A program made the translations under genes and the position numbers. A DNA stretch of 64,000 nt from an uncultured Pseudomonadales bacterium (GTDB lineage: Bacteria > Patescibacteriota > Microgenomatia > UBA1400 > PJMF01): NCBI GenBank assembly GCA_964457085.1, contig CAYWDM010000002.1:203418-267417 (forward strand), written 5' to 3'. The notes beneath the pieces were generated by a model. That model made no database searches, had not been told where the DNA came from, and saw only the letters and a program-made list of their open reading frames with translations. This document shows, piece after piece, positions 2,512 through 56,015 of the stretch (the first letter of the stretch is position 1; each line of letters opens with the position of its first letter).

Positions 2512-3567
2512 CTAAGATTCTAACAATTCCTGTAGATATTTTTCCAATTCTTCATCCCCATTCCAAGCAATAATATGCTGTTCGGTGATTAAATCGAGAT
2601 GAATTTTTGGTGTTTTTCCCTGAAAATTTAAGACTTTGCCTCCAGCAGCTTCTACGACTCCAATAATTGGAGCTAGGTCATATGAAAGCTGCTTGGCTCG
2701 AATCAGTGCATCTAATTGTCCTCGAGCCGTCATGGCACCAGCATGCTGAATGTCGATGCCTGCATAGAGTCGCTGTGCGTGTAGTGCGAGTTTCTTGATG
2801 CCAGCATCCCAAACATCAGCTCTAAGATCTTTATGCCCAATCGAGACCACACAGCGTCTCACATCGTTTTGTACGTATTGGGATTTACTGACGTGAATGG
2901 TCTCACCGGCTAGATTCCAACAACCTGATCCTGGAATCCCAAGTACAAGTTGCTGCTGAGTCTGAACTTGGGGAAGAGCAATGGCTGAAGCAATAATGCC
3001 GCTATGTGTTTCATCTACAACTGTTGCATCGTATAGTGCCATGCCTACAGCCCAACCTTCATCGATCCCTCGAGTAAAACTAATTGATCCATCGATAGGA
3101 TCAATTGTAATAATCCTTCGACCTGAAAGGTTATATCCGCCGCTTTCTTCATCGAGGATTCCATAGGTTGGAAAATACTCTTTTACTAATGAGCTGAGTA
3201 CTAAACTTGAAATTGTGTCTCCTAGTGAGTAGGTTTCCCTTCCAGCTGCATCTTTGCTTTCCCCTAGGCCCACAAGATGTTTGACACTATCAGCGAGCGT
3301 TAGGCCGATGAGACAGGCTTGTGCCATGAGTAGACTAGCTTTCGCTGTCTCAGCTTGTGTTGTCGAGCTGACTGAAGAAACTAGCTTCTCATTGAGGATA
3401 GGTGTTCTCTTAAGACTTATTAAGAGTAAGTCTAATGTTCTTTGATCTATTCGTAGTTGCTGTTTTTTTGTGACCAAAACTTTTTGAGCCGAATCGAGTA
3501 ATTGTTGGGGAATCTGCGATAGAGAGTCAGACATATTTTCATTGTATATGTTTGCTCTAGTTGGCAA
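2512..3567 (-). CDS. inositol monophosphatase family protein with N-terminal extension
   Basis: Motifs ILDEESGG, IDPIDGS and a C-terminal YDLAPIIGVVEAAGG (WDxAAG-like) are typical of the IMPase/SuhB family. About 90 aa of unrelated N-terminus precede them. Confidence 0.7.
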   Translation of the reverse strand: MPTRANIYNENMSDSLSQIPQQLLDSAQKVLVTKKQQLRIDQRTLDLLLISLKRTPILNEKLVSSVSSTTQAETAKASLLMAQACLIGLTLADSVKHLVGLGESKDAAGRETYSLGDTISSLVLSSLVKEYFPTYGILDEESGGYNLSGRRIITIDPIDGSISFTRGIDEGWAVGMALYDATVVDETHSGIIASAIALPQVQTQQQLVLGIPGSGCWNLAGETIHVSKSQYVQNDVRRCVVSIGHKDLRADVWDAGIKKLALHAQRLYAGIDIQHAGAMTARGQLDALIRAKQLSYDLAPIIGVVEAAGGKVLNFQGKTPKIHLDLITEQHIIAWNGDEELEKYLQELLES

Positions 3568-3859: not shown

Positions 3860-4192
3860 ATGGCGAACAAAACCAGTAGCACCCAAAACAGTTATAAAAT
3901 CAGAGTCAGACTTAAGTCTTATGACCATCGAGTTATAGACGAAGCCTCACGCAAGATTTTGCAGACCGCGTTGTCTACCGGTGCGAAAATTGTGGGTCCA
4001 GTACCTTTACCGACCGATACCCGGTCGTTCACCGTATTGTCTTCACCTCATTCCGACAAGAATGCTCAAGAGCATTACGAGATGAGAACACACAAACGCT
4101 TAATTGATATTGTTAATCCAACTAATAAAACTATTGATTCGTTAATGCACCTGGAATTGCCCGCTGGTGTAGATATTCAAATCAAGATGTAG
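3860..4192 (+). CDS. rpsJ: 30S ribosomal protein S10
   Basis: [23 protein letters not shown]...GPVPLPT is conserved S10 sequence; it is the first gene of the S10 operon. Confidence 0.9.
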
Positions 4193-6053: not shown

Positions 6054-6887
6054 ATGATACGTATAGCTACCCCAACCACTCCCGGAAGACGCAATCTCGC
6101 TTTAATTGATCGTAGCGACTTGAAGAAAACCGGTCCAGAGAAATCACTATTAGTTCCAGGACACAAGAAACGTCAGGGTCGTGGCTTTAGAGGTCACATC
6201 ACTGTTAGACATCGTGGTGCTGGTGTAAAGAAGAGATTGCGTGTCATTGATTGGCGCCGTGACAAATTGGACGTAGTTGGTATCGTTAAGAGTCTCGAGC
6301 ATGATCCCATGCGTTCAGCTCATATTGCTTTGATCTGGTATAAAGATGGCGAGAAGCGCTATATCGTTGCTCCTCATGATCTCAAAGTTGGTGCTGAGAT
6401 CATTGCCTCGGAAAAAGCTGAGCCTTTGGCAGGTAATGCTATGGCTCTCAAGAATATTCCTATTGGTGTGCCTATTCACTGTATCGAATTAGTTAAAGGC
6501 AAAGGTGCACAATTGGTTCGAGGTGCAGGTAACGCAGCATTGGTTCAAGCCAAAGATGAGAAATATGTCACCATTCTTTTACCTTCCAAGGAACAAAGAT
6601 TGATAAATGCGGATTGTTTCGCTACAATCGGCCAGGTTGGCAACTCAGATTGGAAGAATCAGAAGTTAGGTAAAGCTGGTCGCAAGCGTCTGATGGGTAT
6701 TCGTCCTTCAGTTCGTGGTACTGCTATGCATCCCAACAACCATCCACATGGTGGTGGTGAGGGTCGCTCAGGTGCTGGTTTGAAATATCAGAAGACCAAG
6801 TGGGGTAAAAATGCAGCTCCAGGTAAGAAGACCAGAAGTGTGCGTAAGAGCACCAAGATGATCGTCAAAGATCGAAGGGCCAAATAA
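6054..6887 (+). CDS. rplB: 50S ribosomal protein L2
   Basis: Conserved L2 motifs GRRNLALI...HPHGGGEGRS. Confidence 0.95.
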   Translation: MIRIATPTTPGRRNLALIDRSDLKKTGPEKSLLVPGHKKRQGRGFRGHITVRHRGAGVKKRLRVIDWRRDKLDVVGIVKSLEHDPMRSAHIALIWYKDGEKRYIVAPHDLKVGAEIIASEKAEPLAGNAMALKNIPIGVPIHCIELVKGKGAQLVRGAGNAALVQAKDEKYVTILLPSKEQRLINADCFATIGQVGNSDWKNQKLGKAGRKRLMGIRPSVRGTAMHPNNHPHGGGEGRSGAGLKYQKTKWGKNAAPGKKTRSVRKSTKMIVKDRRAK

Positions 6888-6899
6888 GGTTATAAAACT

Positions 6900-7184
6900 A
6901 TGTCGAGATCAAGTAAAAAAGGACCATACATTGACCCAAAGCTGATGACTAAAGTCAGTAAGCAGAAGTTAAGTGGTGACAAAGCTGGTATCAAAACTTG
7001 GAGTCGCGCTTGCGTGATTGCTCCAGATTTTGTTGGCCACACCTTCATGGTACATCAAGGTCGCAAATTTATTGAGGTATTCGTTACTGAAGCCATGGTT
7101 GGACATACTTTGGGTGAGTTTTCTCCCACTCGTACTTTCCGTGGTCACGGTAAAGTCATTAAACGAGTGTTGAGTAAGACTTAA
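6900..7184 (+). CDS. rpsS: 30S ribosomal protein S19
   Basis: [14 protein letters not shown]...[11 protein letters not shown] matches S19. Confidence 0.95.
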
Positions 7185-12145: not shown

Positions 12146-12922
12146 TTGGTGCAAACACATTCAGGAAAATCACGCATGAACGAACAAGCTAGTAGACGCC
12201 CTAACGCAGGTGAAGAGCGTTCGGACTTTGAGGAGAAAGTAATTTCTATCTCTCGCGTTTCAAAAAAGACCAAAGGTGGTAATAAAGTTGGTTTCTCAGT
12301 GCTGATGGTTGTTGGTGATAAAAAAGGCAAGGTTGGTTTAGGCCTTGGTAAAGCCAATGATGTTGCTTCAGCAATTAAAAAAGGTATCCGCAAAGCTAAA
12401 AAGAAAATGTTGGAAGTTCCTTTGGATGGAACAACCATTCCTTTTGCTATCACTCACAAAAAAGGTGCTGGCAAAGTAATGTTGAAGCCATCTCCAGCTG
12501 GTACCGGTGTTATCGCTGGTGGTCCAGTGCGAGCTGTGGTCGAGGCTGCAGGTATCCGTGATATCTCTGCCAAAATCATGGGTAGTGACAACCAATCTTC
12601 AAGTGTTTACGCTACATTTGCTGCTTTAGAGAAAATTGCTCAAATCGTTGCAGTTAAAAACATTAAACTGCGTTCAATCATTGAGGTTGAAGAGGAAGAC
12701 AAGAAGACACAACAGAAGTTACAAGAAGAAGCCAAGAAGCATGCAGTTGAAAAAGCTGCTGAGACTGCTCCAGTAGCTAAATCAGTCGCTGGAAAAGTTG
12801 CTGCTAAATCAACCGGTGCAGTTGCAGAGAAAACCGCAACTGAAAAGGTTGAAAAACCAGTCAAAAAAGTGATAGCCAAAAAACCAACAGTCAAGAAAAC
12901 AGCAAAAAAAGCTGTTAAATAA
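12146..12922 (+). CDS. rpsE: 30S ribosomal protein S5 with ~85-aa K/A/E-rich C-terminal extension
   Basis: S5 core (RVSKKTKGGNKVGFSVLMVVGD...GTGVIAGG) followed by a histone-like low-complexity tail. No L30 gene follows. Confidence 0.9.
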   Translation: MVQTHSGKSRMNEQASRRPNAGEERSDFEEKVISISRVSKKTKGGNKVGFSVLMVVGDKKGKVGLGLGKANDVASAIKKGIRKAKKKMLEVPLDGTTIPFAITHKKGAGKVMLKPSPAGTGVIAGGPVRAVVEAAGIRDISAKIMGSDNQSSSVYATFAALEKIAQIVAVKNIKLRSIIEVEEEDKKTQQKLQEEAKKHAVEKAAETAPVAKSVAGKVAAKSTGAVAEKTATEKVEKPVKKVIAKKPTVKKTAKKAVK

Positions 12923-13419: not shown

Positions 13420-14709
13420 GTGCTACAAACAATTGAACGTAAATTGAAGGCAATCCTTGCAAACGAACAGCTCAAACGTAAGCTCGGTTTTACCGCACTT
13501 ATTTTCTTAGTTTATAGACTCCTAGCTCACATCCCAGTTCCAGCTGTTGATATCACACGACTGCAATCTTTATTTTTAGATAATCAATTTTTGAGCCTAT
13601 TAAACGTTTTCTCAGGTGGTACTTTATCGCAATTTTCTTTAGTAGCTGTCGGTATCAATCCATATATTACCGCTTCCATCGTGTTGCAGCTTGGTGGCAT
13701 GGTATTTCCAGCCCTCAAGGAGATGCAAAAAGATGGCGAGAGTGGTCGAGCTAAAATGAATCAGTACACTCGATTATTGAGTGTACCTTTGGCGATTGTG
13801 CAGAGTGTTTCCATTATTACGTTACTCCGTTCTCAGTCCCTAATTACTACATTTGAACCATTACATTTAATTGCTATGGTGATGGCTTTAGTTGCTGGTG
13901 CCATGATTTTGATGTGGCTAGGTGAATTAGTCTCTGAATATGGCGTGGGCAATGGCATCTCAATGGTGCTGTTTGCCGGTATTATCAGTCAGCTTCCTGT
14001 TGCTTTTGCCCACACTTTTAGTGTCATTGATTCTGCACAGTGGATTACACTTATCACTTTTGCAGTGGTGGTGGTTGGCTTGATTGCTATGACCGTGTTC
14101 ATGAATGAAGCAATCCGTAAGATCAATATCCAGCATGCAAAGAGAATGCGTGGTAGTCGATTATATGGTGGCCAAACCACTCACTTGCCAATTAAAGTAA
14201 ATGTAGCTGGGGTGATGCCAATTATCTTTGCGGTTACCATCATGATGGTACCGTCTTTCTTGTCGAAATTCATGCTTGGTTCTACTAACAAGCAGTTGAT
14301 AAGCTTTGGACAGCAGCTGGGAATGGCATTTAGTCAGACTTCTTGGATATACATGGCAGTTTATTTCTTAATTGTGTTTGGTTTTACCTATTTTTCAGCA
14401 TTAATTTTCTTTAACGCTGGCGATATTTCCGAAGAATTGAAGAAGAGTGGTGCTTTTGTGCCGGGTATTAGACCAGGAAGTCCAACCAAAAAATTCTTAG
14501 AATTTGTAGTTACACGAATCACCTTTGCTGGAGCTATCTTTTTAGGATTGCTCGCAATTGTGCCTTCACTAGCTCAAAGTCTGACTGGTGTTGGATCACT
14601 AGCAATCGGTGGTACTAGCGTACTAATCGTGGTCTCGGTGGTATTGGAGACTGCCAAGCAAGTGGATAGTTTACTAGTCGGTCAAAATTACCAAAAATAT
14701 AAATTGTAA
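13420..14709 (+). CDS. secY: preprotein translocase subunit SecY
   Basis: 429-aa 10-TM protein; GINPYITASIVLQL is the SecY signature, and the gene sits between L15 and adk. Confidence 0.95.
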   Translation: MLQTIERKLKAILANEQLKRKLGFTALIFLVYRLLAHIPVPAVDITRLQSLFLDNQFLSLLNVFSGGTLSQFSLVAVGINPYITASIVLQLGGMVFPALKEMQKDGESGRAKMNQYTRLLSVPLAIVQSVSIITLLRSQSLITTFEPLHLIAMVMALVAGAMILMWLGELVSEYGVGNGISMVLFAGIISQLPVAFAHTFSVIDSAQWITLITFAVVVVGLIAMTVFMNEAIRKINIQHAKRMRGSRLYGGQTTHLPIKVNVAGVMPIIFAVTIMMVPSFLSKFMLGSTNKQLISFGQQLGMAFSQTSWIYMAVYFLIVFGFTYFSALIFFNAGDISEELKKSGAFVPGIRPGSPTKKFLEFVVTRITFAGAIFLGLLAIVPSLAQSLTGVGSLAIGGTSVLIVVSVVLETAKQVDSLLVGQNYQKYKL

Positions 14710-14730: not shown

Positions 14731-15267
14731 ATGAAAATTATTCTGATTGGAATCCAAGGCGCAGGAAAATCAACTCAGGGAAATATGCTCTCCCAAGAAC
14801 TTGACATTCCTTACCTCTCATCTGGCCATATTTTTCGAATGATGACCAAAGAGAAGACCGAGACAGGTCGATGGTTGAAGGAGACGCTTAACTCAGGTGC
14901 ACTCGTACCAGATGAAGAAGCGGTTAAAATCGTAATGGAATACCTCCAGAAACCTGAATATGACAAGGGGTATATTTTGGATGGTTTCCCACGAACTATT
15001 GCTCAAGCAAAAATCTTAAGTGATGGCACTGAGAAAGCTGTATTTATCAATGTTTCGGACAAAGAAGCACTGTGGCGTATTTCTGGTCGCACGAGTGACC
15101 GCGAAGATGAATCGCTGCAGGCAATTCGCAAACGTATTGGTCTCTTTCATGAGCTGACTGAGCAAGTAATTGAATACTATCGAGATAAAGGTAGTCTTAT
15201 CCAAGTTAATGGTGAAGAGGATGTTCAAGAAGTCTTCGGACAGATCATGAAGCATCTTCGTGACTAA
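14731..15267 (+). CDS. adk: adenylate kinase (short form, no zinc LID)
   Basis: P-loop GIQGAGKSTQ and LDGFPRT motifs in a 178-aa protein. Confidence 0.9.
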   Translation: MKIILIGIQGAGKSTQGNMLSQELDIPYLSSGHIFRMMTKEKTETGRWLKETLNSGALVPDEEAVKIVMEYLQKPEYDKGYILDGFPRTIAQAKILSDGTEKAVFINVSDKEALWRISGRTSDREDESLQAIRKRIGLFHELTEQVIEYYRDKGSLIQVNGEEDVQEVFGQIMKHLRD

Positions 15268-15292
15268 TCGTCTTTTGTTTGTATTTTAGAGA

Positions 15293-15322
15293 CCACCGGC
15301 TAAAAACCGGTGGTTTTTTGTT
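15293..15322 (+). terminator. rho-independent terminator after adk
   Basis: The hairpin accaccggc-taaaaa-ccggtggt is followed by tttttg. Confidence 0.7.
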
Positions 15323-15569
15323 ATTGACTTTTTTTGACTCGAAAGTCTCTAAATGATATACTATAGGATGTTTGTAATTACCTTCCATCAGATGATGGAG
15401 TGGGTGAAAGCAGACAATTCGCTCTTTGAAAATTTGCTAATTAAACCTGAAAATTTCATGAAACATGTCGAGGTGACGGCGCTGGCCATTTGACCAGAAT
15501 GGTGAGCGCCGTTACTTCAAGGCAAATCTAATTTTTGTGGCGGATTGAAATCTGTCACTTTGGAGAAAC

Positions 15570-16121
15570 ATGAACCGAATACTTGTTTTGCTCTCGCTTT
15601 TGCTTGTCGCCTGCACAGCAGTGACACCGTCCACCCCAAAGGCGACTATGCCGGTTGCCACTGAGACTCCGCTTGTTGCTACCGAAACTCCAGCAGCTGA
15701 GTCAACTGAAGACGCGTTCGCTGCCACTACGATTGTGGAGTGGACTCGAATTGGCGAAGAACCGAAACGCTTTACGATCCGCTCCCAAGGTCCGTTTGCG
15801 CAGATGCAAATAGACGAAGGCGAGTTGGATGGTACAGTTGTCTGCGGTGATACAGTGTTTGAGCTTGGTAACGAGCATTTACACACAATCACCGCCAAGC
15901 AATGCCCCGAACTCCTCACTACAGGAGCTGTGGTCCAGTTTATAACCACAGCTCGTTGGTATTTTCCCGCTGGAGTTGGTGGCACTTTGACTTTCGCCGA
16001 AGGTAATAACGGCGTTTGGACAGAGGTAAACGACCTCTGGGTTTGGAGGGCAGTCATTAAATTGACACCTGACGATTCGGGAATTCCGCCTAAGATCGAA
16101 ATCGAGAGGATGGTCGGCTAA
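15570..16121 (+). CDS. predicted lipoprotein, paralog 1 (inserted in r-protein cluster)
   Basis: Signal peptide with lipobox LLVAC and a T/P/E-rich linker. It shares the C-terminal pattern CG.TV...KQ.CPEL...WRA...L.P...P.I.IE with the next ORF. Confidence 0.6.
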   Translation: MNRILVLLSLLLVACTAVTPSTPKATMPVATETPLVATETPAAESTEDAFAATTIVEWTRIGEEPKRFTIRSQGPFAQMQIDEGELDGTVVCGDTVFELGNEHLHTITAKQCPELLTTGAVVQFITTARWYFPAGVGGTLTFAEGNNGVWTEVNDLWVWRAVIKLTPDDSGIPPKIEIERMVG

Positions 16122-16474
16122 TTGCCGACAAGGGGGGTTGATTGGCAAAAAACTTAAGGAGCAACATGTCCGCTTGGGTTAAACCTGGCGGACATTTGCG
16201 TTTAAGATCATTTTTACACCGATACATACTTGATATAGTTTGACATATTAATCCCCAGATATTAGACTATAGGCTAGTTTGGCTTTGCTGCTGCATATTT
16301 TTGTGTGGTTAGCGGTGTCAAGCTATCGCTCTTTGAAAAATTGTGATTTTATTGTCTTCATTGGGTTAATGGTGCTTGCTCACGCAATTTATTTTATTAG
16401 TTGTTTGGGTTAGCACCATTCAACCATTTTTTTTTATTCTTAGGTCGCATTTGTGATCTAAGACTGGAGGCAAT

Positions 16475-16990
16475 ATGCAAGCAGGAAAAAAGAATAAGTT
16501 CGAACGACACCACTGGATTTTGCTTTTGGTGGTGACGCTAATCGTGTTGTTGCTGTTGTTTTTTGGTAACTACACACCGGCACAGGTGCCAGCTAAGGAT
16601 GAGCTGATTTTACAGTACGCAGTGATGCGTGATGGAGTAAGACACTTCCCTTTTGTTGCTGAGGGGGTATATCCCGACATTTCTGTTGGGGTAAATGGAG
16701 TTGAGGTAAAAGTAATGTGCGGCCAAACCGTACATTACTTACCAAGTCCTCCAGTTAATGCCATTGGGAAGCAGGCTTGTCCAGAGTTGTTTTCAGCTCA
16801 GGGCGTCGCCATCATCCTAGTCAATTCCTCAGACGAGCACAACGAAATAGTGCCTGTCGATGCCGAGATGCAAATCTTGGAAGGTGGGGAATGGACTCAC
16901 GAATATGGTGGTGTAGTCGAGGTCTGGCGAGCGATCGTCAGGCTGGAGCCGCATGCTGGGGCTAAATACCCCGAAATCACAATCGAATAA
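16475..16990 (+). CDS. secreted/membrane-anchored protein, paralog 2
   Basis: N-terminal TM anchor and the same conserved Cys pair and C-terminal motif as paralog 1 (VMCGQTVHYL...KQACPELF...WRAIVRLEP...YPEITIE). Confidence 0.6.
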   Translation: MQAGKKNKFERHHWILLLVVTLIVLLLLFFGNYTPAQVPAKDELILQYAVMRDGVRHFPFVAEGVYPDISVGVNGVEVKVMCGQTVHYLPSPPVNAIGKQACPELFSAQGVAIILVNSSDEHNEIVPVDAEMQILEGGEWTHEYGGVVEVWRAIVRLEPHAGAKYPEITIE

Positions 16991-16992
16991 GA

Positions 16993-17036
16993 GCACTATG
17001 CTCGCCAGGGTAAAAACCTGGCGAGCATTTTGCGTT
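16993..17036 (+). terminator. rho-independent terminator after paralog 2
   Basis: The hairpin atgctcgccagg-gtaaaaa-cctggcgagcat is followed by a T-run. Confidence 0.7.
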
Positions 17037-17097
17037 TTAGTGCCAGAACACTTAAAAAGGTACTTTAAACCGAATAGAAAGCAAAACATGATCTGGC

Positions 17098-17126
17098 CTG
17101 ACTTTTTGAGGTTTTTTTGGTATAAT
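17098..17126 (+). promoter_or_regulatory. putative sigma70 promoter with extended -10 (TGgTATAAT) for infA transcription unit
   Basis: TATAAT at 17121-17126 preceded by TGg and a weak -35 (cTGACt) 17 nt upstream. It lies about 40 nt upstream of the infA start and just downstream of a terminator. Confidence 0.5.
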
Positions 17127-17168
17127 TGCCAGATCGAATGAGCCTTTTGTCATCGATGTGGAAAAAAT

Positions 17169-17483
17169 ATGGGTAAAGTTCAAGATCACAAGCGTTCGGC
17201 GAAAGCCAAACGACAAGTTGATACCACCGAGCAAAAAGCAGATCGTTCTGATCGTTTTGAGGTGGTTGGCTTGATCGAAGAATGTTTACCAAACACCATG
17301 TTCCGCGTGAAAGTAGTCGAGAGCGAAGTGGAACAGATGAAAGATCGGACATTACTTGGAAGCTTAGCAGGAAAAATGCGCCTGTTTAGAATTCGAGTTT
17401 TGCCTGGTGACATGGTTAAAGGTTATGTTTCTAAATATGACCTCACCAAGTGCAAAATCACCTATCGCACAATGAAGCGGTAA
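17169..17483 (+). CDS. infA: translation initiation factor IF-1 (with ~30-aa basic N-terminal extension)
   Basis: S1-like core EVVGLIEECLPNTMFRVKV...GKMR...RVLPGDMV matches IF-1. Confidence 0.9.
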   Translation: MGKVQDHKRSAKAKRQVDTTEQKADRSDRFEVVGLIEECLPNTMFRVKVVESEVEQMKDRTLLGSLAGKMRLFRIRVLPGDMVKGYVSKYDLTKCKITYRTMKR

Positions 17484-25250: not shown

Positions 25251-25337
25251 GGAAGCGTCGCATAGTGGCCTAGTGCAGCGGGTTGCTAACCCGCGGTATC
25301 GAAAGATGCCTCGTGGGTTCGAATCCCTCCGCTTCCG
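25251..25337 (+). tRNA. tRNA-Ser (anticodon GCU), class II with long variable arm; CCA not encoded
   Basis: Hand-folded: acceptor GGAAGCG/CGCTTCC, 3-bp D stem, anticodon stem GCGGG/CCCGC with loop TTGCTAA, an 18-nt variable arm, and T arm GTGGG-TTCGAAT-CCCTC (one U-U mismatch). Confidence 0.7.
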
Positions 25338-25470
25338 CACCGTTTTTCAATCCTGCGAAGCAGGTATTGGAAGACGGTATGAATTGGATGAGAAAGCAAG
25401 GTACCTCGCCAAGCGAGTACTTTGATATAAGTCATAATCGAGCCTGGAAAGGTAAATCCCTCCGCTTCCG

Positions 25471-31677: not shown

Positions 31678-33105
31678 TTAGGGAGTAGCTGTTTCGGCGA
31701 TAATATCGTCGATTATCTTGTCTACAGAAACGGCACTGCTGGCCATTCCATCAAGATTCAGAGAAATTCGATGTTGCAAGGCGGGGCGAATGAAAGCTTG
31801 AATATCTTCTATTGAAACCGTGGTCCTATTATCCAGCAATGCACGTGCTTTCGCTCCACGTATGATGGCATGTTCACCACGTACTGAAGCTCCAATTTCG
31901 ACATATTTTTGTACTGAGGCAACTGTTGATTTTTTTGGGTGAGTGTTGATTAAAATTTTGCCAGCATATTCAATTAACTTTGATGAAACTGCGATGCTTT
32001 CAATAGTTTTTTGAATAGCTAGTACGTCTTTTACATTGGCTAGTTGTTGGTGTTTTTCATTGTTTTCTCCAACTAATGTTTGTCCAATTATTTGGTTTAA
32101 TACTGATAACTCTGGCAAGTCCAAATGTACTATGAAACCAAATCTGTCCAATTGAGCTTCAGGTAAGGGATATGTCCCAACACTACCATGATTGTTTTGA
32201 GTAGCAATTACGAAAAAAGGCCTGGGTAGGGAGCGCATCCTACCATTTGTTACTTGCCTCTCTTCCATTGCTTCGAGTAGTGCAGCTTGTGTTTTAGGAG
32301 TGGCTCGATTAATCTCGTCAACTAATACGATATTTGCAAATATTGGTCCTTTTTTAAACTCATCGGCATTTTTAGTGCCAGCAGCTCCATGCATTGAAAA
32401 ACCGAGTATGTCTGTGGCCATTAGATCTGGGGTACATTGTATGCGAGTAGATTTTAAGCCTAATATTTTTCCTAATGATTTAGCTAGTTTTGTCTTACCC
32501 AGTCCTGAATTACTCTCTAGAAGTACGTGCCCTCCAGTAAATAAGGCGATGAGAACTAAACGTACTGCCTCCTCCTGACCGATTAGTATTTCATTCAATT
32601 TCTTTTCGACAGTTGCTATTTTTTGAGTTGCTTCTTTGTAGTTAAGCGGTGCCTCATTATTTGACCCAGTTTCCCACTCTTTAAATAAATCAAGGTATGA
32701 TTGCAAAAGCGAAAGTAACTGAGTTAGTTTATCTACAACCTCTGAAGTATCTTCTGTTTTTTTAGGAAATGTGGATTCCAGTTTTCCATCAAAGACTTCT
32801 GCTAACTCAGCAGTATTAATAAGCTCATCAATCTTGTCGATAGCTGTATGAATTATTTTTTCATATAACGCTATTTTTCTTTTGTCTCGTGCAACTTCAA
32901 TGTTACCAATACCTTTGGTTGCATCTTCATACAGATGCAGTGCTGACGCAAAGGTACCACCATCATTGGTGAATAGTTTTTCCTCAAGTACTTCAATCAG
33001 GTTCATAACACTTTGTGCACCTTCAACTTGCAAAGAGTTTATATCTATTGCAGCCTCAATTTGCTGTATTTGCTGTTCTACCTCTGGTCTCATATACAGT
33101 ATCAT
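31678..33105 (-). CDS. MoxR-family AAA+ ATPase with ~170-aa N-terminal coiled-coil extension
   Basis: Walker A NSGLGKTKLAKSLG, RIQCTPDLMATDILG, and Walker B/sensor VLVDEINRATPKTQAALLEAMEERQVT. Confidence 0.8.
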   Translation of the reverse strand: MILYMRPEVEQQIQQIEAAIDINSLQVEGAQSVMNLIEVLEEKLFTNDGGTFASALHLYEDATKGIGNIEVARDKRKIALYEKIIHTAIDKIDELINTAELAEVFDGKLESTFPKKTEDTSEVVDKLTQLLSLLQSYLDLFKEWETGSNNEAPLNYKEATQKIATVEKKLNEILIGQEEAVRLVLIALFTGGHVLLESNSGLGKTKLAKSLGKILGLKSTRIQCTPDLMATDILGFSMHGAAGTKNADEFKKGPIFANIVLVDEINRATPKTQAALLEAMEERQVTNGRMRSLPRPFFVIATQNNHGSVGTYPLPEAQLDRFGFIVHLDLPELSVLNQIIGQTLVGENNEKHQQLANVKDVLAIQKTIESIAVSSKLIEYAGKILINTHPKKSTVASVQKYVEIGASVRGEHAIIRGAKARALLDNRTTVSIEDIQAFIRPALQHRISLNLDGMASSAVSVDKIIDDIIAETATP

Positions 33106-33186
33106 CGTAGCATTTTAAAAATTGAAAAACTACCAATAATCGACAGCAAGTGGTGGTTTGATTGGGATAATCTAGCTATACTGTTG

Positions 33187-36100
33187 ATGATAATGACCGA
33201 AAAAATTAGTATATTTGTTGGCAATAAACTGGCCGAGTTGGGTCTAAAACCACCTAGTTTAACTGATGGATTACTACTTGCTGATGATCCCATCCTGCAT
33301 CGTCATGTCAAACAGCGGATTCGACATAGGTTGGAAGAGAGCGGACAACCACTAAGATCATCGGAAGTTGATGCTGTATTGTCTAATGAAACCTCCATTT
33401 ACTTGATCGAAGAGGTCGAGTTGGAGAGTGTTGACTTTCTAATTGCAAGTGAAAAACTACACAAGCCAGTTTTTGAAAAGATACTGAGGAACATAGCACA
33501 TTTAGACTTTAGAAGTTTTGCGAGTGCACAACAGAGTGAAATCTCTCTTTATGATCCAGAGGTGATTACACCTCAAGTTTCTTGGGCGGTGGAACAAATT
33601 TTTCAAAATTTACCTGGTTTCTTTGAGTCGTTTGAAATAATGATGCAGCATGATCAGGCTTTTGAAGAAGAGCAAACCGATATTGTTCGCAATATCTTCA
33701 TTATTGGATATCTGCATGGCTTTTTAAGCGAGGAAAATCAGAATTTAACCACAGCCAAAGTATTTTTAGCTCATGCTATTAGAAAAAGTAACTCTGACGA
33801 AGAAAAACTAAAGCCATATCCTGCTTTCTTAAGGAGAATAGTGGATAAAGATGAATCAGCTCAGGTTTCACCAAGACTTGAACATCTAAAAAATCATTGG
33901 CTACAGCAACTTGCTCGTCGTTGGTTGTTGTTGTCCAGAACAGATGAAGCTTCAGCTGACACCTTAAGTCAATCGACCAGACAACAGTTGGATGAGCATT
34001 TACCAAAAGACAGAAGACCCGCTGAGAATAGTGCTGTTGCGAGAAAAATGGATTCATTGAATAAAACGAGAACAACATTTCAAGGTGAAGTTGGTAGCTC
34101 CAACGGAAATGCTGATCAGGGATTTAATGAGAGTGCACAAATTAGAGAAGAACTGCAACTTACGGTTGATGTTGCCCAACAGCAACAGTCGACAATTATG
34201 CACATGAGAGATATCTTGCGTCTCTATCAGGGAAATAACCAAGAAGTTTTTCATAATGGTCATCAAAATACAGAAAAATGGTTGCCATTTAAAGTTGCTG
34301 CAGAACCCATTTTGCAAAAGTTAGTTTTAGGTTTTGGTTTGCTTAACGATTCAAAAAATGATGATGCCAGATTTGATTCTGCCGTGGACACAATTGTTAA
34401 ATCAATGATTCAGAGTTTAGCAAATTCTGGTGATGCCCAACACATCAGAGGGATGTTTGGGGCAGATTTTTTTAATTTGGCTCAAGTTGAACAGCTTTGC
34501 TTACTGTCATTTACAGCTCTTTCTTTTATCAATAGGGAGACCAGTACATCTAAGTTGGCAATTCAAATTTTAGATAGAACGGTTATTCCTCGTCTCAATC
34601 AGTATTTCGATTTAGATCGTTACAAAGAGCTATCAACCGAAAATGTACCAGCCTTCAATTTTTCTACTTATGATCAGCGAGTATATGAAGATAAATCTCA
34701 GCACGCAAAATCAGTACTTGGAGATCTGCAGCCAGCTGATGAATTAGTGGGTGTTGATAGTGCTGTTTTTCGGCAGTTGCTTGAAAGAAATAAACAACAA
34801 TTATCAGGTGTCTCCAAGATTTATTCTTTATTTGCTTCACTAACCAGTGAAAACTGGGGAGAACATACGAAGCCGCATACAATAATCTTAGGCGAGATTT
34901 TTGTGATGACGGCTTTTATTTCTGGTCATCTCAACTTTAATTTATCTGAGAGTTTATTAACTGAATCATTAAAAACAATTTTCTCTGAAGACCCATATCT
35001 CTTTTTATTGAAAATAGCCCCAATACCACTAACACTGGCAAGTGGAGCTCTATTGATGGGTGATAAGGCTAGGAAAGACTTTAAGAAATTATTATTATCT
35101 TCTTCAGAATTAAAAAAAGATCTAAAGAAATTTTCTAAAGGTGGATGGAGGCAGATTGCGATGATGCTCATGTTAAGCACATATGCTTTGAGTTCAACCT
35201 TTCCTTTATGGCAAAACCAAGCTGATGAACTGTGGGATTCTGCCAAGGATCGTTGGGAAGAGCTGTTCGATGATGATGAGGTAGTAGAAGGAGAAGATTC
35301 TACTGATGGTATGAGAAATTTTTGGGAGGATAGAAATCCTGAGGCAGTTGATGCCAATGATTTGCTGGACATAGAGAAAGTTGACTGGGGAGAAATTGCA
35401 ATTGAAGAAGACGTGTATGGTAAAGATCCTAATGCCCCAATAGGTTTTATAAACACTTATGTTGTTTCTCCTATAGTAGCTGAGTCTGAGGATCAACAAT
35501 ATAACACTGAGTCAAACATGACTGATTTTGACGCCTTATCTAATGCAGACGATATTATCGTAAATGCGAGTGGCTATGTAATTAGAAATGACGAGATTGA
35601 ATTTACACTTGCAAATGGCGATACCTACATTCAACCTGCTGCAGGTGCAGATTTTGTTGTTAAAAATGGCATAGTTAATGGTCATAATTGGTTTGCAAGA
35701 TTCTTAGAAACAGGCAAATATCTTGACAAAATTATTGTTGTGTCAAAACCTGACAGCCCGAATAATTTTTTCTCCAATGGAGAATTGTTTAATAGATATG
35801 ATTATCCTGACCGATATGTAGCTTCTCTTACTGAGAGTCATGATGAATATTTTGTGGTATATAAAACAAATCCAGATGCTGCAAACGAATTGAATCGATA
35901 TAAGTTGCGACTTGATGAAAATTTAGTCTTTTGGCAAACTCATGCTGCAGATCGAGAAATTGCCCTGACAGTTTTAGAAAAAGAGAATCCAGCAGCAGCA
36001 GCTCTTTATGCACAAATGTTAGCAGAACAGAACCTATTCTGGGCAAATTATGATCCTCAGAATAATCATGAAATTGACTATCTTAAAATGATTGATAAAC

Positions 36101-37389
36101 AGATAACTGCGTATACTCTTTTTGTAAAAACTAACCATGTATACAGTCTTAAATACAAGCCAAAAACGAATTATGCAGAGAAGTATCCTGATGTCGGCGT
36201 TATGCTCGATGTGATGGCACTTAAAAAAGGTGGCTATTATTGTTTAACTGCACATTTGGCTGCACAGGAATGGTTTCTTTCTCTAGGAGTTCCGATGGAT
36301 GGTTTGTATGGATATCATATATATGATGATGCAGGCATGGCTAGATCACGCATTGGTCATGTTCAGACTGGTATTTATGGAGCAGTTCATGATTTTACTC
36401 CTTCCACTCCAAATCCTGGAGAAGATTTACGAGCATTAGATTTCAATAAAAATACTGCTGTGAGTGGACAATTAGATACTCAGGCTGTTGAGCAACCCAC
36501 TATTGTCGATTTATTACAAAAATTTGCAAACGTTGATAATTTATCACTACTTATTCTTTTGTTATCGACAGTGGGAGTTGGATATTCCATTAAATTGGGA
36601 ATACAACAAGCAATGGGTAAAACCACCAAAGATGACTTTGATACAGTAGAACAAGTTAAAAATATTTTGCCCGATACTGAACTTGCATTGAGAGGTTTAA
36701 CCTCGGCATTACTGCAATTATTAAATTTGATTGCAGAAGTTGATCCATCATTTCCAGATAGTGAGGATGGCAGTAAAGACCGAAGGCAGATACTTTCGCA
36801 AATTGTTACGGAGAGTTTGATTTTGGCAACCAAACCCTCAAACACGCAAGCTGAAATATCTAGCAGCATGTCAATGAATCCCGAGGTACTTGCATTGCTG
36901 CAGTTAGTGGGATTAGGTAATGGTACATTGAGTGAGAATGCTCGAGAGCAAGTGGAAAGTTTATGGCAAAAACTCAATAGCAATCAAAGACAGACGAAAC
37001 AGCTACTACAAGAAGTTCTTGGATTACTGGATAGCATATCAACCAACTTCGGAAAAGCATCAGAGATCAAAAGGAAACTGGTGGGTAAGTCAGTGAGAAA
37101 ATTACAAAAGCAACTGATGAGAACGAGAAAAAAAGAAAATAGAATATATGGCATGTATGGTGCATTTTTAGAAAAATCACACTTGGCAAAAGATGAGAAA
37201 ATCAATGAACTTAGAAAATCAATTACTGCAGATTATTTAGCCATTCATCATCAATTAGAGCAACAAAGTAATGAGTTACAACAACTAAACACGCAAGCAA
37301 AACTATTACCTACAAATGTAAAAAGTCTCAAAAAAGTTTTGAGGTTTATGCTTAACCATAGTACAGCACACGACATAGCTCATGAATAA
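33187..37389 (+). CDS. giant hypothetical protein (1401 aa), MoxR-associated
   Basis: The track ORF begins at 33013, inside the divergent MoxR gene. The start is revised to ATG 33187 (MIMTEKISIF), the first ATG after the MoxR start. No recognisable catalytic motifs. One hydrophobic segment (LSLLILLLSTVGVGY) and a C-terminal coiled coil. Confidence 0.55.
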   Translation: MIMTEKISIFVGNKLAELGLKPPSLTDGLLLADDPILHRHVKQRIRHRLEESGQPLRSSEVDAVLSNETSIYLIEEVELESVDFLIASEKLHKPVFEKILRNIAHLDFRSFASAQQSEISLYDPEVITPQVSWAVEQIFQNLPGFFESFEIMMQHDQAFEEEQTDIVRNIFIIGYLHGFLSEENQNLTTAKVFLAHAIRKSNSDEEKLKPYPAFLRRIVDKDESAQVSPRLEHLKNHWLQQLARRWLLLSRTDEASADTLSQSTRQQLDEHLPKDRRPAENSAVARKMDSLNKTRTTFQGEVGSSNGNADQGFNESAQIREELQLTVDVAQQQQSTIMHMRDILRLYQGNNQEVFHNGHQNTEKWLPFKVAAEPILQKLVLGFGLLNDSKNDDARFDSAVDTIVKSMIQSLANSGDAQHIRGMFGADFFNLAQVEQLCLLSFTALSFINRETSTSKLAIQILDRTVIPRLNQYFDLDRYKELSTENVPAFNFSTYDQRVYEDKSQHAKSVLGDLQPADELVGVDSAVFRQLLERNKQQLSGVSKIYSLFASLTSENWGEHTKPHTIILGEIFVMTAFISGHLNFNLSESLLTESLKTIFSEDPYLFLLKIAPIPLTLASGALLMGDKARKDFKKLLLSSSELKKDLKKFSKGGWRQIAMMLMLSTYALSSTFPLWQNQADELWDSAKDRWEELFDDDEVVEGEDSTDGMRNFWEDRNPEAVDANDLLDIEKVDWGEIAIEEDVYGKDPNAPIGFINTYVVSPIVAESEDQQYNTESNMTDFDALSNADDIIVNASGYVIRNDEIEFTLANGDTYIQPAAGADFVVKNGIVNGHNWFARFLETGKYLDKIIVVSKPDSPNNFFSNGELFNRYDYPDRYVASLTESHDEYFVVYKTNPDAANELNRYKLRLDENLVFWQTHAADREIALTVLEKENPAAAALYAQMLAEQNLFWANYDPQNNHEIDYLKMIDKQITAYTLFVKTNHVYSLKYKPKTNYAEKYPDVGVMLDVMALKKGGYYCLTAHLAAQEWFLSLGVPMDGLYGYHIYDDAGMARSRIGHVQTGIYGAVHDFTPSTPNPGEDLRALDFNKNTAVSGQLDTQAVEQPTIVDLLQKFANVDNLSLLILLLSTVGVGYSIKLGIQQAMGKTTKDDFDTVEQVKNILPDTELALRGLTSALLQLLNLIAEVDPSFPDSEDGSKDRRQILSQIVTESLILATKPSNTQAEISSSMSMNPEVLALLQLVGLGNGTLSENAREQVESLWQKLNSNQRQTKQLLQEVLGLLDSISTNFGKASEIKRKLVGKSVRKLQKQLMRTRKKENRIYGMYGAFLEKSHLAKDEKINELRKSITADYLAIHHQLEQQSNELQQLNTQAKLLPTNVKSLKKVLRFMLNHSTAHDIAHE

Positions 37390-40300
37390 TCAGGAATTTT
37401 TATCAGTTGAACCAGAAGGTAAGCAAATAGATACTGCAGTGGATGCAGCAGCCTCTGAGTCTGATATGTTGGAGCTTAAAATTGCTGAAATTTTGGGTCA
37501 ATCCTCTGTAGATTTTATTGAAAAGACTGTTTCTGAACATTTGGGAGATGGTTATGAAAGCAATGACTTAGGACTTGTTGAAAAAATTAATTTAATTTTA
37601 ATCTTAGCTTCAAAAAAGAAAATAGTTGTCTCATCTGGATTACTACGAGCTGTAAAGAGTGTCACTACTATTTTGCCGAATGGTCAAATTGATATCGAGT
37701 ATCTAATCCATCTAAAAGGTGAAAAAAGAAAACACTTATTTCAAGTTATAAGTTCATTGATTCTATTGCTTGGATTAAGTTTCGGTGTCGGAAATGAATT
37801 AGTTGGTCGGATTCAAAATACGGAGAATCGAAATAAAGTTGAGTTGTCAGCAAGTGCGGTTGATGATGAGAATGCTAAGGCATTGGAGTCACGAACTAAA
37901 TTTGAAAGACAATTTAGTAGTGATCTGGAGACTGTAGTGGCAGAGATGGGATGGCAAGACTTCTTAGGTGAATATACCAAAGAAAATAATGAGAGTGTGT
38001 GGTCATCAGAGGAGGTTTTCCAGTTGTTGCGCACACAAGAGCCACGGTATTGGGGTTATTACATCATCGCTTATCCAAATACTTTTGTCGAAGCTGTTGA
38101 TACTTCACAAGTATCACAAGTTGAGTTTATGAGTTCGTGTGGTGATGTCCGCTTTTTCAGTTATTTACAGACTCAGATGGGTGGTGACGTTACTTGGCTT
38201 GATTTGTGGAGTGCTGATGAATTGTTCGAAACACTTAGAATGACAAACCCAAATTGGGGAAAAATAGTGGCAAATAATCAGGTGTTATTTGTTGGTGTTT
38301 TGGATAGAGAAGATTTGACACCACTGGTTCACATGCTAGCTCCTACTGCTAATTCTGCAGATATGCACTATTTCTTGAGAGATTACGAAAACGACTGGGA
38401 TCAGACATGGTCAAGGCGAGAACTTTTAGATGCAATGAAGGCAGACGGTAGTGTCAGCTGGGGGTTCTATGTAAAGCGCTACATGCACCTTTTTGCGAGC
38501 GACATAACCGAAGAAGAATTGTCGGAAGTTATAGAGGATATTTCATTTAGCAGTTCAGGTCTTTACCCTAGCACAAATGACTTAGCATTTTTTTCTGACT
38601 ACTATAAATTGCAGCTTTATGAGGTCGTTGATCCTGCAGCATTTGTACGACTTATTGAAACACATTTTAGCAAAGAAATTGCAGCTCAAATTCTTGCTAA
38701 TTATCCAGAGTTAAATCAATTAGAGCAAAGTAACATTGAGCGATTATTTGAAACTGAAGCAATTAATTATGTATTAGATAACTATGCTCAGTGGGAGTCT
38801 GTATATCCAATAGTAGATATCATGACCTTTTTACGGGACAGTGACCAGAAATATCATTACGCTTTAATTGTGCCGCATCCAGAGTTGTTTCAAGAAATAT
38901 CATTCACTGATGATGAGGTTGTCTTACTTGCTTTTCGAAACAATTTTATGGAAACAACTGGTGAAAAAAAGAAATTTTTTCACAACTATCAGGGACAATT
39001 TGGCTGGGAAAATCAAATTCCTGTGGAGAGAATGCTGAAACTTGGAAGAAGTAAACCAGGTGACGGTATGTATACTGCCGCTCTTTATTTTCCAGAAATA
39101 TTTTTACCTCATTTCACGGATGAGGATATGTATCAATTAGTGCTTTCAAATTCTATTGATTTAGAAGAAGTGGATGTTTTACATTCCACAAATCCAATCT
39201 GGAAACCTTTTACCACTGTAGAGCGTAGGCACACGATGCTTGAATTAGCAAAAAATGATACTGAGCAAGATTGGGAAGAGTTGGTGGCTTCTAGATTCTA
39301 TTTTTTTGAGGATATTTTGACTTTTGATGAAGCAAAAGATATTTTGAGTAAGTATCACTCTAGTACCATTAGAAATAGTCCGCTTTGGCAGAACAACGTA
39401 ACTCCTGAGTGGGAATATTCTTTTTTCAAAGAATCAAATGAAGATATTTTTATTCATTTAATTGCCAATGATCCTGTCTATTTTAGTGAGCAACTTACAG
39501 AAGGTGATAAGTTGTTGGTGTTAAAAAATAAACCAGAGGTAATATTAGATAATTATCTTTTTTGGCAAAAGTTTTTTTCACCAGAATTTATCTTAGACTA
39601 TTTTTACAGTGGTCAGAGTGCGGAGAATTATGGTTATTTTGTTTTAAGAAACAAACACATATTTGGGCATGTTTTTTATAACAGTGGATATGATTTAAAA
39701 AACTCAATTATGCATGGTGGATTAGATACCCTGTTTGATACTAACTATGATACCGACCAATATTACTATGAGGAGTGGTCCGAGTTCGTAAGCATTGAAG
39801 AATTGTTTTACATACTGGAAGGATTTGAAGATGGCAGAGTGAAGATACTTACCAGACCAAACTTATTCTTTGAATTTGTTGAGTTTTCTGACCTAAACCA
39901 GTTTGTGCAAACTGAACATTGCATTTCAGCATTACTAGGTAGCTATGACGATTGGCAGGAGTTATGGAGCTTTGCAGATATCTATGAGGCTGTTAAGGCT
40001 ACTGATCCAAGTTATTCGGCATTCGAACTATTTAGCAGTGATTATGCCGAAGATTTTATTAAATTGACTAGCCATGATGATTTACAATTTTTGATCAGGT
40101 CATATCCTGATGACCTCTCGTATATATTTGGGAGTAACTTGGAAATACTCTTGAAAAAATGGACTGCTGAAGAAATATTAACGGCTCTAAAACAAGAACA
40201 TCCAGATACCTGGGGTGCATTCGTAACGGATGGAATTGTACATTTTGATGCGTTATTATCGCAAAGTGATTTAGAATCGCTGATCGCTCATGGGGCAAAT

Positions 40301-40594
40301 CCGGCTGGATTAATGGAGACTGGTTTGTGGGAGGTAGACGAAGTCTTTGATGTCTATAAAAATAATTTCCCTGAAAAGTGGGGAGAAATTATTCTTACTA
40401 ATAGTGAAATTTTCATGGAGGAGGTTATTCGAAGAGACGTGTCATTACAACAGCTACTTGAGTTTACAGACATTACTATCGCATACGAATATACATACTA
40501 CTGGAGAGATGTCTGGTCAGAAATTGAGATTGAAGACGCTCTGCATGCAGTGTATGGAGATGCACTTCCAGTATATGATGAGGCAGCTGGTTAA
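37382..40594 (+). CDS. giant hypothetical protein (1070 aa) built from ~12-14 degenerate ~75-aa tandem repeats
   Basis: The start overlaps the upstream stop (ATGAATAA). Repeats follow the pattern [D/E]E[V/L]F..L....P..WG..[I/V]...P.LF.E........L (e.g. EEVFQLLRTQEPRYWGYYIIAYPNTFVEAV, DELFETLRMTNPNWGKIVANNQVLFVGV, EEILTALKQEHPDTWGAFVTDGIVHFDAL). The protein is acidic and aromatic-rich. Confidence 0.6.
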   Translation: MNNQEFLSVEPEGKQIDTAVDAAASESDMLELKIAEILGQSSVDFIEKTVSEHLGDGYESNDLGLVEKINLILILASKKKIVVSSGLLRAVKSVTTILPNGQIDIEYLIHLKGEKRKHLFQVISSLILLLGLSFGVGNELVGRIQNTENRNKVELSASAVDDENAKALESRTKFERQFSSDLETVVAEMGWQDFLGEYTKENNESVWSSEEVFQLLRTQEPRYWGYYIIAYPNTFVEAVDTSQVSQVEFMSSCGDVRFFSYLQTQMGGDVTWLDLWSADELFETLRMTNPNWGKIVANNQVLFVGVLDREDLTPLVHMLAPTANSADMHYFLRDYENDWDQTWSRRELLDAMKADGSVSWGFYVKRYMHLFASDITEEELSEVIEDISFSSSGLYPSTNDLAFFSDYYKLQLYEVVDPAAFVRLIETHFSKEIAAQILANYPELNQLEQSNIERLFETEAINYVLDNYAQWESVYPIVDIMTFLRDSDQKYHYALIVPHPELFQEISFTDDEVVLLAFRNNFMETTGEKKKFFHNYQGQFGWENQIPVERMLKLGRSKPGDGMYTAALYFPEIFLPHFTDEDMYQLVLSNSIDLEEVDVLHSTNPIWKPFTTVERRHTMLELAKNDTEQDWEELVASRFYFFEDILTFDEAKDILSKYHSSTIRNSPLWQNNVTPEWEYSFFKESNEDIFIHLIANDPVYFSEQLTEGDKLLVLKNKPEVILDNYLFWQKFFSPEFILDYFYSGQSAENYGYFVLRNKHIFGHVFYNSGYDLKNSIMHGGLDTLFDTNYDTDQYYYEEWSEFVSIEELFYILEGFEDGRVKILTRPNLFFEFVEFSDLNQFVQTEHCISALLGSYDDWQELWSFADIYEAVKATDPSYSAFELFSSDYAEDFIKLTSHDDLQFLIRSYPDDLSYIFGSNLEILLKKWTAEEILTALKQEHPDTWGAFVTDGIVHFDALLSQSDLESLIAHGANPAGLMETGLWEVDEVFDVYKNNFPEKWGEIILTNSEIFMEEVIRRDVSLQQLLEFTDITIAYEYTYYWRDVWSEIEIEDALHAVYGDALPVYDEAAG

Positions 40595-55927: not shown

Positions 55928-56015
55928 GGAGAGGTCGCATAGTGGCCTAGTGCAGCAGTTTACTAAACTGCCGTATCGCAAGATACCCAGGGTTCGAATC
56001 CCTGCCTCTCCGCCA
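55928..56015 (+). tRNA. class-II tRNA, Ser-like paralog with atypical anticodon loop UUACUAA (anticodon ACU); CCA encoded
   Basis: Acceptor GGAGAGG/CCTCTCC, the same D arm as the tRNA at 25251, anticodon stem GCAGT/ACTGC, a 16-nt variable arm, and T arm CAGGG-TTCGAAT-CCCTG followed by GCCA. Confidence 0.65.

Follow-up and report, generated by a model that had tools for sequence, protein, structure and literature searches.

Two open reading frames (ORFs), par1 and par2, occupy the 1.9-kb gap between adk and infA in the S10-spc-alpha ribosomal-protein cluster of a patescibacterial genome, on the same strand as the cluster (contig CAYWDM010000002.1; the 64-kb stretch of it that was analysed is called the window below, and coordinates given without a locus name refer to it). 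The cluster, on the forward strand, extends from the S10 gene (3860) over SecY (13420-14709) and adk to infA, downstream of which lie the genes for L36, S13, S11, S4, RpoA, L17, L13 and S9. We propose that the adk-infA interval is a clade-specific island of two tandemly duplicated, self-contained expression cassettes, whose transcription would be controlled by Nus factors through a boxA-like leader motif, whose translation would be gated by leader RNA folded over the Shine-Dalgarno (SD) sequence, and whose products would be abundant, diversifying surface proteins. To this package as a whole, in which the Nus control and the function of the proteins are what we infer, we give an even chance of being correct.

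Both cassettes lie on the forward strand and follow one order, a strong sigma-70-type promoter, a structured leader of about 200 nucleotides (nt), the coding sequence and an intrinsic terminator. The duplication spans all four elements, as is seen when the three intergenic regions are aligned. Cassette 1 starts with a promoter at 15334-15362 (TTGACT, a 17-nt spacer and a TG-extended TATACT, then ATAGG), of which TATACTATAGGAYG is kept in the related loci L084, L085 and L086, and continues with its leader (15366-15569), par1 (15570-16121) and a terminator (16166-16207) composed of a hairpin at 16166-16195 and TTTGCGTTTAAG. Cassette 2 has its promoter at 16240-16268 (TTGACA, a 17-nt spacer and TAGACT, then ATAGG), its leader at 16272-16474, par2 at 16475-16990 and a terminator at 16998-17040, the hairpin of which (16998-17028) has a 12-bp stem and the conserved tail ATTTTGCGTTTTA. 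The hairpin between the paralogs, followed by TTTGCGTTT, is alignable with the par2 terminator and, according to the analysis of inverted and direct repeats, is a copy of it. In a covariation analysis of six terminators from five loci, 97% of the cells pair and 8 of the 12 pairs show compensatory double changes, a result that none of 500 shuffles matched, while all slid registers collapse. The first-pass annotation of this DNA had placed one terminator behind adk, one between the two paralogs and one behind par2, and the terminator scan, the repeats and the covariation show that all three are real; the paralogs' own promoters and long leaders were absent from that annotation and were found here, and with the boxA-like motif of the leaders they make up what is most unusual about the island.

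The leaders are far more stable than shuffled sequences. The minimum free energy of leader 1 is -78 kcal/mol (z=-7.4) and that of leader 2 is -79 kcal/mol (z=-9.2), the leader of L086 reaches z=-6.4, and in none of the three cases was any of 200 shuffles as stable. Each leader of the window contains an inverted repeat (I2 in leader 1, I1 in leader 2). Although their sequences differ, the five promoter-proximal leaders, which come from four genomes, adopt a common architecture when folded independently: a bipartite 45-50-nt hairpin (H1) at the extreme 5' end, which ends 0-4 nt before the boxA-like motif, then, 3' of the motif, a long hairpin (H2) and a short one (H3) just ahead of the SD. These elements lie at about 15369-15416 (H1), 15470-15518 (H2) and 15537-15558 (H3) in leader 1, with the SD GGAG at 15562-15565, and at about 16275-16325, 16362-16426 and 16438-16462 in leader 2, with the SD GGAGG at 16466-16470. 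In leader 2, nine T residues (16427-16435) stand directly after H2, which gives this part of the leader the canonical shape of an intrinsic terminator. A long-range helix over the SD and the AUG is predicted in three leaders of family A, the protein family of par1 and par2 (the two leaders of the window and that of L086). The MAFFT alignment of H1 is not structure-consistent, and for this reason H1 was compared through independent folds and no pair counts are given for it. None of the Rfam 15 covariance models other than those of tRNAs passed in the window, and the best match in the island was the rimP leader, which scored 27.9 bits and fell short of the gathering score of 47. The idea of a short upstream ORF in the leaders was rejected: the block common to the par1 and par2 leaders lies in different frames, and L084 and L085 differ by four non-synonymous substitutions and one synonymous one, L085 also having a stop codon in frame.

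The boxA-like motif (TCGCTCTTTGAAAAWTTG) is present in all seven island leaders. It reads TCGCTCTTTGAAAATTTG in cassette 1 (15419-15436) and TCGCTCTTTGAAAAATTG in cassette 2 (16326-16343), where it was found as the direct repeat D4; the L084 and L086 leaders carry TCGCTCTTTGACAAATTG and TCGCTCTTTGACAATTTG, respectively, and the remaining three carry GCGCTCTTTATCAT, GATCTTTAACAG and GCTCTTTCACAG, the latter two being the more divergent motifs of genes of a second family (family B, described below). In the five promoter-proximal leaders the motif is located at +53 to +58. The sequence GCTCTTTRAMAA occurs twice in the 64-kb window, both times in the island leaders, against 0.12 expected occurrences, and the promoter-plus-boxA module is confined to island loci among 208 loci. 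The exact 18-mer of the motif was found in at least three unrelated metagenomic rRNA operons (L106, L128 and L166), in which it precedes a full 23S rRNA gene by 7-77 nt. In L166, moreover, GGCTCTTTGACAATT stands after a GC-rich hairpin upstream of 16S, so that the hairpin comes before boxA there as it does in the island leaders.

The rrn boxA of Escherichia coli is TGCTCTTTAACAA. In an rrn antitermination site, a boxB-like hairpin and boxA serve NusB-NusE (S10), NusA, NusG and SuhB, and the island core GCTCTTTGA(A/C)AA is like such a boxA, bar G for A at position 8. The island motif has the very sequence of the boxA that precedes 23S in the metagenomic operons and differs little from the one that precedes 16S, and, as in rrn leaders, it is transcribed, stands just 3' of a hairpin and keeps a fixed promoter distance; however, it precedes genes for secreted proteins instead of rRNA, and binding to it is a prediction. 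The motifs of the window (GCTCTTTGAAAA) differ only at position 8 (G for A) from the boxA consensus GYTCTTTAANA (PMC5725501), which is a gamma-proteobacterial one. In sequence and position the motif is thus a predicted rrn-type boxA, the accessibility of which is uncertain, being partially paired in some folds. The control of protein-coding genes by boxA is documented (PMC5725501), and the boxA-regulated mRNAs of E. coli and Salmonella suhB and of a Citrobacter koseri parE-like toxin likewise have boxA in the 5' untranslated region, which takes Nus-factor control beyond rRNA; the genes of the island are unrelated to translation and belong to the Candidate Phyla Radiation. The boxA of suhB (Baniulyte et al. 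2017, PMC5725501) stands near the SD and lowers translation, with termination by Rho as the consequence. The island boxA, in contrast, follows a 5' hairpin and is separated from the SD downstream by about 140 nt; for it, an rrn-like antitermination role is the likelier one.

We propose that the nascent boxA would bring NusB-S10, and the remaining Nus factors as well, to RNA polymerase, and that the rrn-like elongation complex so formed would carry the polymerase through the long, untranslated and structured leader, resisting premature termination. Without this complex, Rho would have an ideal substrate in such a leader, and the leader of cassette 2 adds the terminator-like hairpin with its nine T residues. 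The leader helix over the SD would then gate translation. The bacterium is ultra-small and probably host-dependent, and the products would be abundant, rapidly diversifying proteins of its surface, with a role in the envelope or in interaction with a partner. S10 (NusE) itself is encoded in the window (3860-4192). SuhB is the fifth factor of the Nus complex in E. coli, and the divergent neighbour of the S10 gene is a 351-aa ORF of the Inositol_P family (2512-3567, reverse strand), a SuhB-like inositol monophosphatase, which may be relevant to the boxA leaders. No rRNA gene is present in the 64-kb window, and neither nusA nor nusG is among its scanned ORFs. In the literature nothing was found on boxA or on an adk-infA island in Patescibacteria. 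That promoter, 5' hairpin, rrn-type boxA and SD-sequestering leader form an undescribed module, co-opted in this clade to bring hypervariable surface proteins of novel fold under Nus antitermination of the rRNA kind, is a tentative suggestion, possible but more doubtful than the package above.

Several observations weigh against a Nus site. Among the 120 metagenome matches listed for the 18-mer, 117 do not adjoin rRNA and none is an island locus, so the sequence of the 18-mer alone is not diagnostic; the rRNA operons in which it was found (L106, L128 and L166) are those of other bacteria; and nusB and rho, too, are not among the scanned ORFs of the window. Complexes of the rrn type are known chiefly to counter Rho, not intrinsic terminators. 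Furthermore, the motif is partly paired in some predictions, and its conservation could therefore reflect RNA structure instead of Nus binding: CUCUUUGA in the boxA of leader 1 pairs with UUUGGAG at the SD, and in the RNAalifold consensus of the five leaders the 5' end of boxA (TCGCTC) pairs with an upstream GGGCGA in five of five sequences. These pairings, together with the exceptional stability of the leaders, their common H1, H2, H3 and SD-sequestering architecture and the lack of a matching Rfam family, are what would be expected if CGCTCTTTGAMAA were part of a novel cis-regulatory leader RNA, either an anti-SD or switch element or the site of another protein such as a ribosomal protein, through which the island genes would be controlled at the level of translation or of mRNA stability. 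Nevertheless, the SDs of leader 2 and of L086 are sequestered by other sequences and the boxA is unpaired or weakly paired there, the motif equals a genuine rRNA boxA of other bacteria, and it keeps a fixed promoter distance behind a hairpin as it does in rrn leaders. We regard a leader RNA of this kind as somewhat unlikely and prefer the rrn-type boxA.

The protein encoded by par1 is a lipoprotein precursor of 183 amino acids (aa), with the N-terminus MNRILVLLSLLLVAC, a canonical lipobox (LVAC), a Thr/Pro/Ala/Glu-rich linker and a beta domain with a Cys pair. The product of par2 (171 aa), the positional counterpart of the infA-adjacent gene of relatives, has the N-terminus MQAGKKNKFERHHWILLLVVTLIVLLLLFF, in which a charged stretch is followed by a hydrophobic helix of 20 residues without Cys, a membrane anchor. 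The two share 24% identity over 144 aa (BLASTP, E=6e-10), which, with the lipobox and the anchor, bears out the earlier claim of tandem paralogs for extracytoplasmic proteins, and all of the shared motifs quoted in support of that claim were recovered (CG.TV, KQ.CPEL, VWRA..L.P and P.I.IE). The six known members of the family have in common, without exception, two Cys, WRA, two Gly, two Leu and one Pro. A lipobox of the form [LVI][ASTVI][GAS]C after an n-region and a hydrophobic h-region is found in par1 (MNRILVLLSLLLVA-C), and P0006 has LLG-C; par2, with its transmembrane anchor and no Cys, lacks it. In P0003, P0004 and P0005, a Pro takes position -1 of the box (VGPC, LSPC), which is atypical and counts against the proposed reading of the proteins. 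Tethering to the membrane is kept across the family by differing means, a lipobox, an atypical xSPC/VGPC box or a transmembrane helix, and these anchors together with the Thr/Pro-rich linkers support the prediction of a beta domain that lies outside the cytoplasm and is tethered to the membrane. The public NCBI protein model of par1 (P0001, 157 aa) begins at the internal Met27 (15648) and omits the signal peptide and the lipobox; we place the start at the ATG at 15570 on the basis of the SD at 15562-15565 and of the Logan gene call.

Neither par1 nor par2 matches a Pfam or NCBIfam family above signal-peptide-level noise, and the best match in a profile search of the PDB (E=0.23) is not significant. 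The AlphaFold2 model of the par2 ectodomain, computed with six sequences, has a predicted local distance difference test (pLDDT) score of 86.3 and a predicted template modelling (pTM) score of 0.80, and is all-beta: it consists of about 13 strands, and its single short helix lies at the CPELF motif. An earlier run with two sequences was poor (pLDDT 55.8) and its Foldseek matches are meaningless. Foldseek searches with the six-sequence model found nothing significant, the best matches being at E=0.27 in the PDB (TM-score at most 0.35) and at E=0.11 in BFVD (TM-score at most 0.38). The model thus points to a new, confidently predicted all-beta fold in a protein family that belongs to no described family or fold. 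The first-pass annotation had suggested a small, disulfide-stabilised beta fold; the beta fold stands in the model, and the disulfide between the conserved Cys residues is probable. The family resembles the lineage-specific surface lipoproteins of host-associated bacteria, a generic class, in its lipobox signal peptide, low-complexity Thr/Pro stalk, small Cys-pair beta domain, tandem duplication and rapid divergence, but it differs from them in having neither homology to described lipoprotein families nor a Foldseek match, and in its fixed position inside a ribosomal-protein cluster.

The family is extremely rare. An exhaustive hidden Markov model (HMM) search of 1.84 billion cluster representatives yielded six clusters, that is, besides par1 and par2, four further relatives of 189-194 aa (P0003-P0006), and word-seeded searches with par1, par2 and the six-sequence profile added nothing to the query clusters but two relatives that were known already. 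A match to a 712-aa repetitive protein (nine matched stretches, E=1.8e-05) was taken as spurious. Five of the six clusters stand directly upstream of infA, and the sixth, par1, is separated from infA by par2. The order is adk, a 185-aa family-B protein (annotated as 246 aa), P0003 and infA in L084 (GCA_043754035.1), adk, P0004 and infA in L086, which has a single copy, and P0005 and infA in L087 and L088; in L085 a family-B gene precedes P0006 and the contig ends in the -35 region of infA. Upstream, adk is visible in L084 and L086 only, the contigs of which extend that far. The HMMs of families A and B do not detect one another, and neither found further members in 88 loci, the 80 related ones included, in the rest of the window or in the 120 metagenome loci listed. 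The related loci were retrieved through SecY, the best matches of which (at most 75% identity) are titled Pacebacteria, Paceibacterota or Woesebacteria, which places the window in the Patescibacteria. No ancestral, lineage-wide order with a characterised family at this position, against which the first-pass annotation was to be checked, was found: the arrangement occurs in a small clade only, and its family is an uncharacterised one. The arrangement is not unique to this genome, as four other loci carry family members at the site.

Family B consists of transmembrane-anchored proteins with two Cys, unrelated to family A, which are encoded by the first island gene in two relatives (5015-5571 in L084 and 345-914 in L085). 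Their leaders (4756-5014 in L084 and 83-344 in L085) have H1 and a boxA variant, and contain a block of about 100 nt, GAGGAGTGA..TGTGTGCG.AAGTGCA..TCGGCGGTAGCGCGTGTGCT.TCGCGGCC.CAAGGCTAGAT, which is about 92% identical between the two loci, exceeds the coding sequence in conservation and matches no Rfam family.

The island proteins diverge far faster than the products of the neighbouring genes. Between the window and L084, SecY, Adk and InfA are 86%, 89% and 93% identical, respectively, whereas the island proteins share 20-38%, with par2 at 38% to its positional counterpart P0003 and par1 at 26% or less to any member. The content of the island varies as well, from two family-A genes through family B plus family A or a single gene to an unrelated ORF, the last in L004, the closest GTDB species representative (UBA9650), where a helical ORF of 182 aa without a Pfam match lies at the adk-infA site (6436-6984, reverse strand); the presence of this ORF makes the slot a variable hotspot in the clade. 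At third codon positions, par1 and par2 have a G+C content of about 50.5%, whereas that of every flanking gene lies at 30-43% (the average G+C content of the window is 40.5%), and this difference is compatible with recombinational exchange of cassettes among relatives, without being proof of it. The same three features, composition, content (B plus A in L084 and L085, a single gene in L086, an unrelated ORF in L004) and extreme protein divergence relative to the flanks, would also suit cassettes that are laterally exchanged or foreign DNA, for instance surface or exclusion lipoproteins derived from phages or relatives, held in a recombination-permissive gap the location of which has no functional meaning. 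We consider this improbable, given that the family was found at no other genomic location and in five of six clusters is directly upstream of infA, that the regulatory sequences are conserved in place, and that the structure searches gave no viral match. An origin from a diversity-generating retroelement or a mobile element was rejected, as the site has no template and variable repeats, no flanking direct repeats, no integrase and no tRNA.

Upstream of the island, adk (14731-15267, forward strand) encodes a short adenylate kinase of 178 aa (Pfam ADK, E=4.6e-33) and is followed by an intrinsic terminator (15288-15330), a hairpin at 15288-15318 with the stem GACCACCGG/CCGGTGGT and a T-run, which has equivalents with differing stem sequences in L084 and L086. 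Downstream, infA (17169-17483, forward strand; Pfam eIF-1a, E=4.5e-15) encodes 104 aa, including a basic N-terminal extension of about 30 aa that is kept in relatives, and is served by an operon promoter at 17098-17126 (CTGACT as -35 at 17098, a 17-nt spacer and a TG-extended TATAAT). The extended -10 that had been reported upstream of infA was confirmed at 17118-17126 (TGGTATAAT), and the 18-mer TGGTATAATTGCCAGATC of this promoter is identical in L084, L086 and L087. It had also been claimed that the paralogs stand where map is usual and that map is missing, and both claims held, the first for the wider lineage and the second within the 64-kb window. In 42 of the 80 related Patescibacteria loci map (Peptidase_M24) follows adk, the 250-aa ORF of relatives at the adk-infA position being M24 (E=3e-33), and in about a dozen relatives adk directly abuts infA. 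In the window the gap holds par1 and par2, in which no M24 domain was found (no Pfam match), tblastn with four Map proteins from relatives gave no relative of map in the 64 kb, and map is also absent from the available parts of L004, L084 and L086. The island genes share the chromosomal slot of map and have no relationship to it in sequence or fold; they differ from it in encoding exported proteins and in forming a transcription unit each.

The first-pass annotation had further read the insertion as having displaced map and thereby broken the S10-spc-alpha cluster into two transcription units. The terminators and the infA promoter do exist, and map is common after adk in relatives, but in most relatives, be it with map or with adk abutting infA, the infA gene is likewise preceded by an extended -10 of the TGGTATAAT type, which implies that the transcriptional break predates the island. 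In a rough neighbour-joining tree of SecY, the window groups with L084, L086 and L004, and this group is sister to L049 and L010, which are without both map and the island; L010 has a terminator-like hairpin after adk. The fact that the sister genomes already lack map does not support displacement; the reading as a whole, displacement with a resulting split, we consider very improbable, and most likely the island entered a slot that map had already vacated. Least credible of all, and to our mind highly improbable, is that the two ORFs are non-functional ORFan debris: the lack of known domains and the very narrow distribution would fit, but the ORFs are intact and have an SD in at least five genomes, the Cys pair, WRA and Gly residues are invariant, the predicted fold is confident and supported by co-evolution, the promoters are conserved and the terminators show compensatory changes.

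Elsewhere in the window, the ribosomal protein S5 (12146-12922; 258 aa overall) has a long C-terminal extension rich in Lys and Ala. Two overlapping giant ORFs on the forward strand (33013-37389 and 37382-40594; 1458 and 1070 aa) have no Pfam domain and lie beside a MoxR-type AAA ATPase (31678-33105, reverse strand). ARAGORN predicted a tRNA-Ser with the anticodon ACT (55928-56015, forward strand), A34 being unusual in a Ser tRNA, and a normal tRNA-Ser(GCT) is located at 25251-25338. A type II restriction-modification pair, an R.HinP1I-family endonuclease and a C5 cytosine methylase, is encoded at 57691-59437 on the reverse strand.

The adk-infA junction of a ribosomal-protein cluster that passes for universal is a variable slot in this lineage, which holds map, nothing or different islands. 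If the proposed control is correct, expression of an interaction surface would be coupled, from a fixed slot in the ribosomal-protein superoperon, to the machinery of growth rate and ribosome synthesis, and the island would be a clear natural case outside the Proteobacteria of an rRNA-type boxA serving non-translation genes. It would also extend Nus regulation beyond rRNA to the Candidate Phyla Radiation, in which regulation is almost unstudied. The proteins themselves are good candidates for abundant, fast-evolving surface molecules of the organism, and their confidently predicted fold, which matches nothing solved, recommends them for work on structures and interactions.

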